DNA from: Candidatus Coatesbacteria bacterium | GTDB lineage: Bacteria > RBG-13-66-14 > B26-G2 > WVWN01 > G020348885 | Reading direction: 5' to 3' | NCBI GenBank assembly: GCA_020348885.1 | Contig: CP070755.1 | Coordinates: 1,532,196-1,594,646, forward strand | Length of the DNA stretch: 62,451 nucleotides | Shown: piece by piece, positions 45,501 through 50,042 of the stretch | Position numbering within the stretch: the first letter of the stretch is position 1 | Layout of the letters: each line of letters opens with the position of its first letter | Translations under genes and position numbers: made by a program | Notes under the pieces: generated by a model | The model's database searches: none | The model's input: the letters and a program-made list of their open reading frames with translations, nothing else | What the model was told of the DNA's origin: nothing

Positions 45501-45540
45501 AAAAACGCCAGCGTACGCTTTACGCGTACCCGGCGTTTTT
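45501..45540 (+). terminator. Hairpin/terminator after the ALDH gene
   Basis: AAAAACGCC...GGCGTTTTT with an inner GCGTAC/GTAC stem. Confidence 0.6.
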
Positions 45541-45828
45541 GTATTGATAACGTATGCGGGGCTTTTTAAGATACGATTGTGGCAGATCCTACCGACAGGC
45601 TCCCCGCAGATCTGGCCGCGTTTTTTAAAGCCGACCCTGCCCGGTGACTGCTGAAGGCTCGACCGCCACTGGTCCCGTATCGGACATATACGTAGATACG
45701 GCTTTTTCGATACCCAACCGACTGACAATTTCTGACAGGTCGATAATCTATTATCGGTAGTCGGTGCTTGTCGTAAGTAGAAGCTGTCGCATAGGTACTG
45801 TCGCTCTTCTAACCAGGGGGATTCGATT

Positions 45829-47586
45829 ATGATAGTACACATACCAAGGATGGAGCAAGATCCGATGATGATGGCTAGGTACAAGGGGGTCAAAACCGTA
45901 CGCGTTACTATAAACGAAGAGTTTTTCCTGGACGGGCCGGTCACGAAACGAATCGCAGTACTGGATTTCGACGCCGATACGGGCGAGTTAAAACCGGGCG
46001 CGAAGTTCCGACCGCCGAAGCCGGGCCGTAAAATAGGGACGTACGCGATAGAGGACGAGACCAACGTACACGCCCGTGATTTCAGACAAGTAAACGCTTT
46101 CGCGATCGTATATGGAACGTTGAATATGTTGGCGAAACCGCACACCCTCGGACGTCAGCTTACGTGGGCCTTCGACGGTCCGCAGTTGTTAGTAGTCCCG
46201 AACGCCGGGGAATGGGAAAACGCGTATTACGAACGGGATTCCCACAGCCTACAGCTCTTCTATTTCCGGGACCCGCGATATCCCGACGAACCCGATAAAA
46301 CTATTTATACGTGCCTTTCGACTGATATTATCGCGCACGAGACGGGACACGCTATTCTCGACGGTATAGCTCCGGACCTCAACGACGCGATTACGCCGCA
46401 GTCACTGGCGCTTCACGAGGCGTTCGCGGACCTGACGGCTTTATGGATGGCTTTCGAACACCGCCAGCTTCGTAAGGCTGTACTTGATAGGACAGACGGT
46501 TCAATTGAGGACAGCAGCGAGTTTACGGCTATCGCTGAAGAATTTGGAACTGTACTTAAAAAGATGTACGACCCGGGCGAAGAGATCGGAGCCCTCCGCG
46601 ATATTAACAACAAGAAGAACCTTATCCCGGGCGCCGACGACTATGTAGCCGATATCGAACCTCACGCTTTAAGTCAAGTACTGAGCGGCGCTCTATACGC
46701 GGTCATGGTAAAAATCCATAATGGACTGGTAGATGAGTATTCCGGAGGCGACCCGAATAAACGGAAATCCGTTTCGGGCAAAGCGTTGGCCGTCGGCGCC
46801 GCGCGGTTTAAACGGATGCTTTTCCGGGCCCTCGATTACCTCCCGCCCGGTGAAATTTCGTTCGCCGATTACGGACGGGCTATCATCGCTCATGACCAGG
46901 CCCATTACCCTGACGACGGGCAAGTACGCGAGTGGATCAAAGACGAGTTCGTTAAACGCGGGATAGTACGGAACAGGGACGCCCTCGAAGTAAAGACCAA
47001 CTTCGAAGAACCCGCGTTGGAAAACGTCAACGTCGAGATGCTCATAAATAGCGATTGGGCCGCGTATCAATTCGCGAACGAGAACCGTAAGTTGCTTCAC
47101 ATACCGAGCCGGCCGCGCCGAATCCCTTTCGAAGTAAGGCCGCGGCACGACGTATTGAAGTTATATTACTACGGCCCCAAAGAATTCGAGAAAAGGCGCG
47201 AGTGTATATTGAAAGTATCGTGGGATGAAATCGAACCCAACCGCCTGGGTCCCCGATACCCGGACCGGCGGCGCATTACGGTCGGTACGACCCTCGTAAT
47301 AAAAATGAAAAAGAACGAATATACCGACGAGGAGAATACGAATACGGTCCGCGCCCTTCTCACTTCGTACCACAAGAAACTGCGGCCCGAGGAGCTGAAA
47401 GAGCAACGGGCGGCCCGGGACGAAATGTTGCAACGGCTGGTAGATATGGGTCTTCTTTATCCGGAAAAGCACGTAACCGGACCCGACGGTAAACCGCTAC
47501 GTTCGGTCGTTCACGCCGAATGTGCGCGCGGTCCCATGCACGTACGCGGCACGGCCCGGACGATACACATCGCGAAGGAGCTGTAA
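45829..47586 (+). CDS. Cytoplasmic gluzincin metallopeptidase (M4/M36-like) with a long C-terminal extension
   Basis: ENAYY, DIIAHETGHAILD (HExxH), LHEAFAD (third ligand ExxxD), EPHALSQV; no signal peptide. Confidence 0.85.
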   Translation: MIVHIPRMEQDPMMMARYKGVKTVRVTINEEFFLDGPVTKRIAVLDFDADTGELKPGAKFRPPKPGRKIGTYAIEDETNVHARDFRQVNAFAIVYGTLNMLAKPHTLGRQLTWAFDGPQLLVVPNAGEWENAYYERDSHSLQLFYFRDPRYPDEPDKTIYTCLSTDIIAHETGHAILDGIAPDLNDAITPQSLALHEAFADLTALWMAFEHRQLRKAVLDRTDGSIEDSSEFTAIAEEFGTVLKKMYDPGEEIGALRDINNKKNLIPGADDYVADIEPHALSQVLSGALYAVMVKIHNGLVDEYSGGDPNKRKSVSGKALAVGAARFKRMLFRALDYLPPGEISFADYGRAIIAHDQAHYPDDGQVREWIKDEFVKRGIVRNRDALEVKTNFEEPALENVNVEMLINSDWAAYQFANENRKLLHIPSRPRRIPFEVRPRHDVLKLYYYGPKEFEKRRECILKVSWDEIEPNRLGPRYPDRRRITVGTTLVIKMKKNEYTDEENTNTVRALLTSYHKKLRPEELKEQRAARDEMLQRLVDMGLLYPEKHVTGPDGKPLRSVVHAECARGPMHVRGTARTIHIAKEL

Positions 47587-48779
47587 TGGATACGCTGGAA
47601 GTACGCGTTTATAACGTCCGGTTCGGCGACGCTATCCTTATATCCGTCCCCGACCGGGACGAAAACACCGGCGATACTCAAACACGACACGTTCTTATCG
47701 ACGTAGGAAACGTCCTGAGCGGCGAAGGCGGAGATAACGTCGTATTCCAGCCGTTTGTCGAGAATATCCTGAGCGTTCTCGACGGGCGTCCCGTGGACCT
47801 CTACGTAATGACTCACGAGCATATGGACCACGTACAGGGGTTACCGTACGCCGCGTGGAAGCTTGAACCGCCACTCGAAATAGACGTGGCGTATGCGTGG
47901 TTTACGGCGTCGGCGGACCCGGGTTATTATGAAAACGGTAAGCACCCAAGATCCAAGGAGTTCGCGGACGATGCGAAAAAGGTATATAATACTATCGATA
48001 AGTACTTCAGGGCCGCCCTCGAATCGGATACAGACGGTTTCAACTATATTCAAACGTTAATGGGTATCAATAGCCCGAGCCGTACAAAAGAATGCGTGGA
48101 ATACCTTCAAGGGCTTACGGATAAAGTCGCATACGTTCACCGGGATTACGACGGTTTAGACGAAAAACACCCTTTCAAAGAGGCGAAGTTCGAAATATGG
48201 GCGCCGGAAGAAGATACGTCTGTTTACTACGGGCGGTTCCGGAGTATGGCCCTGGGTCTAACCGGCGTCGATGAAACAACCGAAGGCCGTGAACTTATTG
48301 AACCGAAACCGCCGGCCGGCGTCGACGCCGGAGATTTCTATAACCTCGTTAATATACGAAACCATGGTTACGTCGATAACCTCCTAACGATCGACCGCGC
48401 GGCCAACAACACCAGCGTTGTATTTAGCCTGGAGTGGCGTGGTTGGAAGCTTCTGTTTACGGGAGACGCGGAAAGACGCAGTTGGAAGCATATGAACAAA
48501 GAAGGCGTACTCGAACCCATACATTTCCTGAAGGTAAGCCACCACGGAAGCCATACCGGCGTACCCGATTCGAAATTCCTGGAAAAGATTCTACCAACGG
48601 AACCGCCCGACGAAAGACCCCGGCGCGCCGTCGTATCCACTTACCCGGACACGTATAAAGGCGTTCCGGATAAAGACTTGCTGCGGGAAGAGTTATCGCC
48701 GCGTTGTGAAGTAACGTATCTCGAAAAAGGAACCGTACCCGACGGCGAATGCTTACCCGCCTTCGAATTCGAAGGTTAA
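47586..48779 (+). CDS. MBL-fold metallo-hydrolase, ComEC/Rec2 type, with large insertions
   Basis: GDAILI, LIDVG, THEHMDH, NNTSVV, LFTGDAE, KVSHHGS. Start ATG 47586 overlaps the peptidase stop (TAATG), with GAAGGAG upstream. Confidence 0.88.
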   Translation: MDTLEVRVYNVRFGDAILISVPDRDENTGDTQTRHVLIDVGNVLSGEGGDNVVFQPFVENILSVLDGRPVDLYVMTHEHMDHVQGLPYAAWKLEPPLEIDVAYAWFTASADPGYYENGKHPRSKEFADDAKKVYNTIDKYFRAALESDTDGFNYIQTLMGINSPSRTKECVEYLQGLTDKVAYVHRDYDGLDEKHPFKEAKFEIWAPEEDTSVYYGRFRSMALGLTGVDETTEGRELIEPKPPAGVDAGDFYNLVNIRNHGYVDNLLTIDRAANNTSVVFSLEWRGWKLLFTGDAERRSWKHMNKEGVLEPIHFLKVSHHGSHTGVPDSKFLEKILPTEPPDERPRRAVVSTYPDTYKGVPDKDLLREELSPRCEVTYLEKGTVPDGECLPAFEFEG

Positions 48780-49025: not shown

Positions 49026-50042
49026 TTGGTAGACTACGAAGACCGTTTACCACAGAAACTCGCGGAGTCGTTCAAAGCCGACCCGGCCCGGTGGTTGCTC
49101 AAAGCTCGATCGCCACTGGTACGGTATCGGACATATACAGACCTGCTCGGGTATCCCCCGGACCACCCCAAACCGGCGGCGCTTCTCCCCCGTCTCGACG
49201 AAGACCCGGACCTGCGGGCCGTTCTGGACTCCCAGACGCCTGACGGTTTCTGGCATACCAACGACCTATATTTCAATAGGTCGGGCCGGGTTAACCTGTA
49301 CGGGCCGAAATACGCCGCGTCGGTCTGGCAGCTGCCTATACTCGCAGACCTTGGTTTTACGACCGACGACGGTGCGCCGGCTCGCGCCTTCGAGTTGTTC
49401 GCAGGTCGTTTAACGGCCGACGGTTTCTGTGATCTGACCGGGAAAGGTTACCCGTTGTTACGGGCAAACGCAATTGCATGTTACGCGTTTTTAAGAATGG
49501 GTTGGGGCCCGAGCGACCTGGGCGCTCCGTTGGCGTGGTTGGCCGCGCAGCAGCGTGCCGATGGCGGCTGGGCGGACGTTCACGAGATAAGGGAACCGGA
49601 CGCGCCCAGCACCGTCGCAACGACGTCGCACGTAACAACGGCCCTGGGATACGCGGACCGCGTGGACGACGTAATCGCCTTTAAGGTAGAACGGGAAACA
49701 GCTAATAATTACCTAAGCAATAATCTGCTTAGCGATTACGCCGGCCGCTTTCAACCGACACGGAAACCCTGGCGAAGGTTAAGCTGGCCCCAGTACGATT
49801 ACGATATTTTAACTGTAACGGAAGCGCTTTGGGTGGCGGGCGCACCGGACGAATACGAACGCAAAGCGGCCGAACTATTAATCGAACTTCAAACGCCCAA
49901 GGGGTTTTGGCGGCAGCGGGTCCGGTTCGTCGTGCCTTCTGTGGTATCTATGGTCGAACCGGGGCACAGTTCGCGCTGGATAACGATGAGGGCGGCGAAA
50001 GTGATAATAGCTATTATTCGCAGAACCGAATCAAAGAAATAA
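49026..50042 (+). CDS. Prenyltransferase/squalene-cyclase-like alpha/alpha-barrel repeat protein
   Basis: WLL....PLVRYRTYTDLL, Q.PDGFW, WLAAQQRADGGW, LQTPKGFW, SRWIT..A repeats. Confidence 0.75.
   Translation: MVDYEDRLPQKLAESFKADPARWLLKARSPLVRYRTYTDLLGYPPDHPKPAALLPRLDEDPDLRAVLDSQTPDGFWHTNDLYFNRSGRVNLYGPKYAASVWQLPILADLGFTTDDGAPARAFELFAGRLTADGFCDLTGKGYPLLRANAIACYAFLRMGWGPSDLGAPLAWLAAQQRADGGWADVHEIREPDAPSTVATTSHVTTALGYADRVDDVIAFKVERETANNYLSNNLLSDYAGRFQPTRKPWRRLSWPQYDYDILTVTEALWVAGAPDEYERKAAELLIELQTPKGFWRQRVRFVVPSVVSMVEPGHSSRWITMRAAKVIIAIIRRTESKK

Follow-up and report, generated by a model that had tools for sequence, protein, structure and literature searches.

A thermolysin-fold metallopeptidase gene coupled to a ComEC-clade metallo-beta-lactamase hydrolase gene in Candidatus Coatesbacteria: a candidate metalloprotease version of protease-gated nuclease immunity

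Two adjacent genes on the plus strand, designated A and B, were analysed in a 62,451-nucleotide (nt) stretch of the genome of a Candidatus Coatesbacteria bacterium (contig CP070755.1, positions 1,532,196 to 1,594,646; the whole stretch is referred to below as the window). According to its open reading frame (ORF) and translation, gene A (45829-47586) encodes a thermolysin-fold zinc endopeptidase of 585 amino acids (aa), a putative activating protease, and gene B (47586-48779) encodes a 397-aa metallo-beta-lactamase (MBL) phosphodiesterase of the ComEC clade, a putative latent deoxyribonuclease (DNase) effector. The pair is probably an undescribed metalloprotease version of the protease-gated nuclease immune switch. 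The two genes are joined at a coupling site on the plus strand (47575-47588), in which the TAA stop codon of A (47584-47586) and the ATG start codon of B (47586-47588) overlap as TAATG within GCTGTAATGG, and a Shine-Dalgarno sequence, AAGGAG (47575-47580), lies inside the end of A directly 5' of the B start. This is the TAATG overlap that had been claimed in the original prediction, which was made from the DNA letters alone. A longer, 419-aa frame for B starting at position 47520 was considered and rejected as unsupported; the homologues begin at MDxLRVR.

The translation of A contains the active-site motifs HETGH (residues 170-174) and HEAFAD (residues 196-201), and both profile alignment and conservation place H170, E171, H174, D178, the third zinc ligand E197 and D201 in one active-site segment (46336-46431, plus strand); these six residues are invariant in 30 of 30 paired homologues. 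An AlphaFold2 model of A, built on 45 homologues, had a predicted local distance difference test score (pLDDT) of 90 and a predicted template modelling (TM) score of 0.92. Foldseek searches with this model returned aureolysin, thermolysin, ProA and vibriolysin (E 3.5e-7 to 3e-5, probability 1.0), with target-normalised TM-scores of 0.56-0.66. The family profile of A aligned the active-site segment with residues 137-181 of thermolysin (E 0.16), so that H170, E171 and H174 correspond to thermolysin H142, E143 and H146, E197 to E166, and D201 to D170. Nine residues of A (N131, A132, Y134, H170, E171, H174, D178, E197 and D201) were invariant in 29-30 of 30 homologues. Both the motifs and the fold thus agree with the gluzincin peptidase that had been read from the sequence.

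The only Pfam match of A was a sub-threshold one to Peptidase_M4_C (17.9 bits, cut-off 24.4), no match to Peptidase_M4 was obtained, no family in Pfam, NCBIfam or PADLOC names it, and a sequence search of the PDB with A found no relatives. The enzyme shares with the M4 peptidases thermolysin, aureolysin, ProA and vibriolysin the two-lobed fold, the NAxY edge strand, the HExxH motif and a glutamate third ligand in ExxxD. It differs from them not only in scoring below the Pfam gathering threshold and in having no sequence-level PDB match, but also in a longer spacing of the second histidine and the glutamate ligand (23 residues instead of 20), in an additional domain of about 155-185 aa at the C-terminus, and in its predicted cytoplasmic location, whereas the M4 enzymes are secreted. 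The N-termini are not hydrophobic. The N-terminus of A aligns with the starts of its homologues, and its catalytic N-lobe begins at residue 1 in the AlphaFold2 model; because the catalytic unit starts at residue 1, A has no propeptide, and a domain search found no M4 propeptide (FTP/PepSY) domain in it. The claim that A has neither a signal peptide, as judged by the lack of N-terminal hydrophobicity, nor a propeptide-like leader was upheld. Taken together, the sequence and the model characterise A as a predicted cytoplasmic thermolysin-fold zinc endopeptidase.

The C-terminal extension of A (residues ~431-585; 47119-47583, plus strand) is, by predicted secondary structure, an alpha+beta domain and a candidate for regulation or sensing. 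No significant fold match beyond the catalytic unit was found among solved structures (PDB) or viral structures (BFVD), and in BFVD no part of A had a significant match. The extension is the least conserved part of A, with a mean pairwise identity of 0.23-0.30, versus 0.61 for the active-site segment. One residue in it, H580 (47566-47568), which lies five residues from the C-terminus, is kept in 27 of 30 homologues despite the poor conservation of the domain around it; that H580 might serve as a latency ("switch") ligand of the catalytic zinc is pure speculation.

All metal-binding motifs expected of a ComEC-clade MBL hydrolase were located in B, namely HEHMDH (motif 2, residues 77-82; 47814-47831, plus strand), EIWAP (202-207), NNTS (274-277), GDAE (293-296) and HHGSH (319-323). 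Motif 2 is invariant in 29-30 of 30 homologues, and the C-terminal catalytic motifs (48405-48545, plus strand), which comprise NNTS, GDAE with D294 and the histidine pair 319-320, are invariant or nearly so in all 30; residue by residue, D39, H77, H79, D81, H82, N274, N275, S277, D294, H319 and H320 are kept in 29-30 of 30. Pfam assigns B to Lactamase_B. The best fold match of B in the PDB was the MBL domain of ComEC (9ic4; E 2.8e-11, target-normalised TM-score 0.75), followed by the Pce phosphorylcholine esterase and then by CPSF-73 and RNase J. Sequence and model alike identify B as a ComEC-clade MBL hydrolase with a complete set of metal motifs, as had been stated originally.

The spacing of these motifs is unusual. 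In B, 192 residues separate motif 2 from NNTS, and 66 separate EIWAP from NNTS, whereas in the solved ComEC MBL domain 9ic4 only about 77 residues lie between the last motif 2 histidine and the NN motif. The excess of B over ComEC in this interval is about 115 residues and includes two variable, poorly ordered loops. Across the B family the spacing from motif 2 to NNxS is 177-229 residues; a canonical gated MBL has 157, an MBL encoded on the Rhizobium leguminosarum plasmid pRL1 has 187, and 9ic4 has about 77. The long intervals noticed in the original prediction were confirmed, and the expansion agrees with that of the gated MBLs.

The AlphaFold2 model of B (pLDDT 88.9) has three weak spots, at residues 41-50, 141-160 and 221-240. 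Loop 1 (residues ~141-160; 48006-48065, plus strand) lies inside a helical insertion formed by residues 108-180 and is a candidate gating or cleavage loop, with a pLDDT of 68-77, a pairwise identity of 0.21 and insertions and deletions among homologues. Loop 2 (residues 221-241; 48246-48308, plus strand) is hypervariable and predicted to be disordered, with a pLDDT of 61-64 that falls below 50 at residues 228-233; over residues 215-241 the identity is 0.19 and the length varies from 11 to 39 residues across homologues, after which a conserved PPxGVDAGxFYxL helix follows. These two least conserved, low-pLDDT loops are about 80 residues apart. Judged by its variability and its modelled disorder, loop 221-241 is the strongest candidate for a proteolytic gate.

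Profile comparisons place B near the MBLs of known defence systems. Among the PADLOC models, B was matched by LmuA-MBL (4.8e-15), RTasMBL of DRT systems (2.2e-10), PDC-M48B and Avs1a (1.3e-5); these matches were partial, that of LmuA-MBL having 53.5 bits over two stretches. Among the NCBIfam models, Avs1a (NF041809; 5.7e-8, 31.9 bits, cut-off 420) scored ahead of ComEC (TIGR00361; 4.3e-6, 25.2 bits, cut-off 190, profile positions 558-623 only), all of these scores being far below the equivalog cut-offs. The weak TIGR00361 match also bears out the earlier statement that the ComEC membrane domain is missing from B. A tblastn search of plasmids with B found MBLs that are about 29% identical over residues 2-366 and are encoded directly 3' of a gene annotated as a "serine protease". 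At one such pair, on R. leguminosarum pRL1, the two genes adjoin a Hachiman system (a DUF1837 gene and a HamB fragment) and an IetA-like ATPase gene. The alignment of B with the serine-protease-linked MBL of pRL1 runs end to end (residues 2-366, E 2e-31), spans both insertions and pairs the motif PAGVDAGDFYNL with PANVAPIDFRNL, whereas the ComEC genes found on plasmids in the same way cover only 24-40% of the query, mainly its C-terminal half, with E values of about 1e-4. The ComEC/Rec2 MBL domain is the solved fold nearest to B, and both have NNxS in place of the motif 3 histidine; B differs in being a soluble protein of 397 aa without a competence channel or OB domain, in its longer interval from motif 2 to NNxS, and in having a protease gene, and not competence genes, as its partner. 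By these comparisons B is nearer to the protease-linked defence MBLs than to ComEC proper, and it is a relative rather than an equivalog of the named gated MBLs.

The association between A and B is conserved well beyond the window. A scan of genome contigs with the single A protein yielded one locus, and the useful set of loci came from an alignment-based scan of metagenomes. Among 64 non-redundant loci from bacteria and archaea with room 3' of A, B was found directly 3' of A and on the same strand in 54. The linkage was seen in 30 of the 35 loci whose A is at least 40% identical to that of the window and in 24 of the 29 with an A below 40%, and it persists down to an identity of about 30% in A. 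The intergenic gap, determined in 29 other pairs, was mostly between -29 and +14 nt. The pairwise distances of A and B were correlated (r = 0.85 for 30 pairs and r = 0.81 for 16 close pairs), and none of 999 permutations in a Mantel test reached the observed r. The catalytic residues of both proteins were kept in 29-30 of 30 pairs. Both families are large, with more than 2000 homologue clusters at 90% identity for A and well over a thousand cluster representatives at 90% for B; in an exhaustive search, 333 clusters of A at 50% identity had E < 1e-30. Archaea and a large number of bacterial phyla are represented, and many representatives of A and B lie on common contigs. Conservation of the gene pair, which had been proposed as a check of the original prediction, was thus confirmed.

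The distribution of the pair is patchy, with occurrences in bacteria, in archaea and on conjugative Rhizobium plasmids. The genome of the window was assigned by kinship to the same order as the Candidatus Coatesbacteria metagenome-assembled genome CP070633, and A was matched in three of 61 genomes, that is, in the window's own genome and in two of 60 relatives. In these two relatives the pair is located at other positions, and their aldehyde dehydrogenase-kinase neighbourhood, which corresponds to the surroundings of the pair in the window, is without it. A genome of the same genus (G001), in which the pair was not seen, was rejected as evidence for mobility; the contigs break in both flanking genes (contigs G001:C415 and G001:C327, our loci L096 and L104, stop within the aldehyde dehydrogenase gene and resume within the histidine kinase gene), and the interval between them is unassembled. 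The pair is a conserved, co-inherited, self-contained cassette that is horizontally mobile.

Most other loci with A and B consist of the bare pair. The 134 neighbours within 3 kb of A and B at about 48 metagenomic loci were inspected for genes of a conflict type. They included four canonical gated MBLs (LmuA-MBL 2e-63, Avs1a 1e-41), two Septu systems, MADS, PDC-S01, AbiJ and Abi_C, as well as four patatins, a Tle1-like lipase, PGAP1/LCAT-like alpha/beta hydrolases, subtilases, a CHAT-AAA16 (STAND)-subtilase protein and a caspase-domain protein encoded directly 5' of A. At one locus (L020, 4025-11778), A, B, a canonical gated MBL of the Avs1a/LmuA-MBL type and a gene for a 1159-aa CHAT-AAA16-subtilase protein form a single run on one strand, with the pair immediately next to a canonical protease-MBL module. 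Another run, on plasmid NZ_CP064189.1 of Rhizobium sp. 007 (L094, 4954-12521), comprises, on one strand, genes for an LCAT/PGAP1-like (lipase-like) alpha/beta hydrolase, A, B, an S1/P1 nuclease, a trypsin-like protease, an Endonuclease_NS protein and a small ORF, and it adjoins genes for an N-6 DNA methylase and a TOPRIM protein; this plasmid is conjugative, and the run may be a multi-effector protease/nuclease conflict locus.

At some loci B is missing. The neighbour of A is then an astacin-PPC protease at L007 and L035, a caspase protein at L062 and genes of unknown type at L083, and because A is retained beside other genes where B is missing, A is the constant component of these loci and its partner varies. 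At L062 (7379-11638) an 826-aa protein with a C-terminal caspase domain (Peptidase_C14) ends 13 nt 5' of a distant A that has no B on its 3' side, which may be a protease-protease pairing. Two apparent rearrangements were examined and set aside. A 985-aa protein (P0066) that had seemed to be a fusion of A with B turned out to be a fusion of A with an astacin-PPC protease, with only the B remnant PPPGVDAGAFYDL between them; it occurs in two assemblies (L007, 8001-10958, and L008) and seems to have arisen by deletion from a locus with A, B and astacin genes, of which L005 is an example. Likewise, a locus in which A is followed by a canonical gated MBL (L038) was not accepted as a pairing of A with that MBL; its A is truncated, and it looks like a deletion of a locus with A, B and a second MBL, such as L020. 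Proteins 26-31% identical (approximate range) to the catalytic part of A are also encoded on viral contigs from IMG/VR (L092, L093) and in the phage records MT836994.1 and LR756511.1; these distant relatives cover only about residues 76-470, to an extent that varies by record, and on the two IMG/VR contigs no B homologue lies 3' of the A relative.

Three studies from 2025 show that MBLs of this radiation are autoinhibited pro-nucleases. Their active site is blocked by two inserted loops until a linked protease cuts the MBL at specific sites, which yields a zinc-dependent DNase that causes abortive infection (PMC12799240; PMC12642450; 10.1101/2025.09.03.673762). Such gating has been demonstrated for Hachiman, for AVAST and for the caspase system Canu, with cleavage sites 63-100 residues apart (I118/I218, I133/I232 and S128/S191) (PMC12799240; PMC12642450; 10.1101/2025.09.03.673762). 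The mechanism put forward in the original prediction, in which a protease cuts the insertions that hold the nuclease inactive, has thus been demonstrated in experiments with trypsin-like and caspase partners; nothing in that prediction was contradicted by the present analysis, and its main points received computational support. The two phylogenomic surveys among these studies describe trypsin-like, caspase/CHAT and subtilase partners only. A metalloprotease partner of a gated MBL is not reported in these three sources or in the other literature searched, in keeping with the earlier statement that a zinc metalloprotease would differ from the known activators, and searches of the literature on PDC-M48, on a metalloprotease with a pro-nuclease and on conflict systems with a thermolysin-like protease and an MBL found nothing.

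Comparison with the trypsin-MBL modules (Hachiman HamM/protease-HamA/HamB; AVAST Avs1a/Avs1b, Avs2-MBL and Avs4-MBL; Lamassu; DRT) revealed common features. In both, a soluble ComEC-like MBL of about 360-400 aa keeps its metal motifs intact, is greatly expanded between motif 2 and NNxS, is encoded in an operon with a protease and co-evolves with it; the PADLOC models that match B (LmuA-MBL, RTasMBL and Avs1a) belong to these modules, and the two variable loops of B have a spacing comparable to that of the published sites. The differences are that the partner of B is a thermolysin-fold zinc metallopeptidase rather than a serine protease, that the protease gene lies 5' rather than 3' of the MBL gene, that the pair has neither a fused nor a neighbouring sensor such as a STAND protein or a helicase, that B falls far short of the Avs1a equivalog cut-off, and that nothing in B obviously corresponds to the conserved Ile or KSS cleavage motifs. 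In Canu (CanABC) and in the subtilase-associated MBL clade (PMC12799240 fig. S2; PMC12642450), the protease is likewise encoded 5' of the gated MBL and is not trypsin-like, and the loci vary and are subject to horizontal exchange; some A-B loci adjoin caspase, CHAT or subtilase genes together with a canonical gated MBL. The proteases there are, however, cysteine or serine proteases rather than a zinc metallopeptidase, and the pair analysed here consists of two genes only, without an accessory gene like CanB. Because the equivalog thresholds were failed and the protease class is different, the pair is not a member of any named system.

Set beside the observed folds, intact motifs, gene linkage and co-evolution, the homology of B to protease-linked MBLs and the partial defence context, the following mechanism is favoured with moderate confidence. 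B would be synthesised as a latent pro-nuclease. The trigger, probably phage infection, would be detected by A itself, either with its C-terminal domain or by an altered oligomeric state, and A would then cut B at loop 221-241, at loop 141-160 or at both. The cut B would act as a non-specific DNase and arrest or kill the infected cell, that is, cause abortive infection. The C-terminal extension is a candidate for the sensing step in that it is the fastest-evolving part of A.

Several observations weigh against this mechanism. Cleavage of B by A, the DNase activity of B, the trigger and the anti-phage phenotype are all steps that we infer. The correlation between the distances of A and B would be expected for interacting partners and equally for adjacent, co-inherited genes. 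Insertion 1 of B (residues 108-180) is largely a confidently modelled helical bundle with many invariant residues and is not a simple disordered gate. PADLOC gave no match for A, and neither A nor the flanking genes in the window contain an NTPase or a known sensor domain, one of which is present in every characterised protease-MBL module. Finally, no defence system is recognisable among the other 49 ORFs of the window and the flanks are of a housekeeping type in five long genomic contexts, so that the expected proximity to defence islands fails at the window and holds for a subset of the other loci; in that subset, an enrichment of conflict-type neighbours is suggestive, the survey having had no matched control.

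Three other explanations were considered alongside gating of B by A. Because the pair often stands among other effector-like degradative enzymes, as in the operon of the Rhizobium sp. 007 plasmid, with patatin, metallophosphoesterase and astacin-PPC genes as recurrent neighbours, and shows no visible sensor, A and B might be independent degradative enzymes deployed in parallel, in which case A would not process B and activation would come from an unlinked or other factor. This is rather unlikely, since the linkage of A and B, with its near-zero gap, is far tighter than the linkage to any other enzyme, since an ungated cytoplasmic DNase together with a protease would be toxic, and since the insertion architecture of B is common to MBLs that are proven zymogens (PMC12799240). 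A second explanation takes up the housekeeping flanks described above and the frequency of the family in lineages with complex life styles (Chloroflexota, Myxococcota, Acidobacteriota), and assumes that the pair is not antiviral and serves stress-induced or developmental self-destruction, or the turnover of DNA and protein, its spread reflecting selfish or accessory behaviour. Set against it are the patchy occurrence among relatives, the nearest characterised relatives, which are all antiphage effectors, and the subset of loci that lie beside Septu, Hachiman-type, AbiJ, MADS and canonical protease-MBL systems; we regard it as unlikely.

It is improbable that the pair works like a toxin-antitoxin system with the roles reversed, in which B would be a toxic nuclease that is active at least in part, A would degrade it continuously, and B would be freed when A fails. 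Such a system would account for a two-gene cassette without a sensor, and the protease-first order and the translational coupling fix the stoichiometry as in many toxin-antitoxin pairs. The insertions of B, however, are homologous to those of autoinhibited zymogens, and loci that have lost B keep A together with other enzymes. No natural locus with B alone was found, an absence to be expected if B alone is harmless and equally if B alone is lethal. To our knowledge, no toxin-antitoxin system employs a thermolysin-like protease as its antitoxin.

Activation of B through cleavage by A is the preferred explanation, and a broader version of it, which we put forward only tentatively and hold to be doubtful, would make A both the sensor and the activator of a minimal two-gene immune system that needs no nucleoside triphosphatase and licenses interchangeable latent effectors by zinc-dependent proteolysis. 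In such a system the effector would be the MBL nuclease at most loci and an astacin-PPC protease or an alpha/beta-hydrolase at others. The proteolytic unlocking of latent nucleases, which was established in 2025 as a widespread principle of bacterial immunity, has involved only serine and cysteine proteases with dedicated sensors (PMC12799240; PMC12642450; 10.1101/2025.09.03.673762). If the preferred explanation is correct, proteolysis-gated immunity would gain a fourth protease class, in a family that is present in bacteria, in archaea and on plasmids; the question would arise of how a two-gene system senses infection; and a considerable number of "hypothetical proteins", at present named by none of the Pfam, NCBIfam or PADLOC models, would be given a function.

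The surroundings of the pair in the window, which lies in a 2.6-Mb genome assembled as a single contig, support the original description of a pair that stands alone after a terminator among unrelated genes. The neighbours, which include genes for a PMT_2 glycosyltransferase, an aldehyde dehydrogenase and a GAF/PAS histidine kinase as well as a 338-aa ORF, are functionally unrelated to A and B, and the flanking genes are of a housekeeping type. No terminator was detected 3' of B. The 338-aa ORF (49026-50042, plus strand) starts 247 nt past B and is probably unrelated to the pair; it was rejected as a third conserved gene, having no Pfam match and no similarity to the genes that lie 3' of the pair elsewhere. 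Upstream of A, a bidirectional hairpin with flanking A/T runs, AAAAACGCCAGCGTACGCTTTACGCGTACCCGGCGTTTTT (about 45505-45540), marks the end of the aldehyde dehydrogenase gene and sets the pair apart from that gene; on the minus strand, a terminator-like site was scored there (45525-45511). Immediately beyond the hairpin, within the 340-nt untranslated region 5' of A, lies a promoter-like site on the plus strand, TTGATA-17-TAAGAT (45544-45572), which was recognised by its match to the consensus only.

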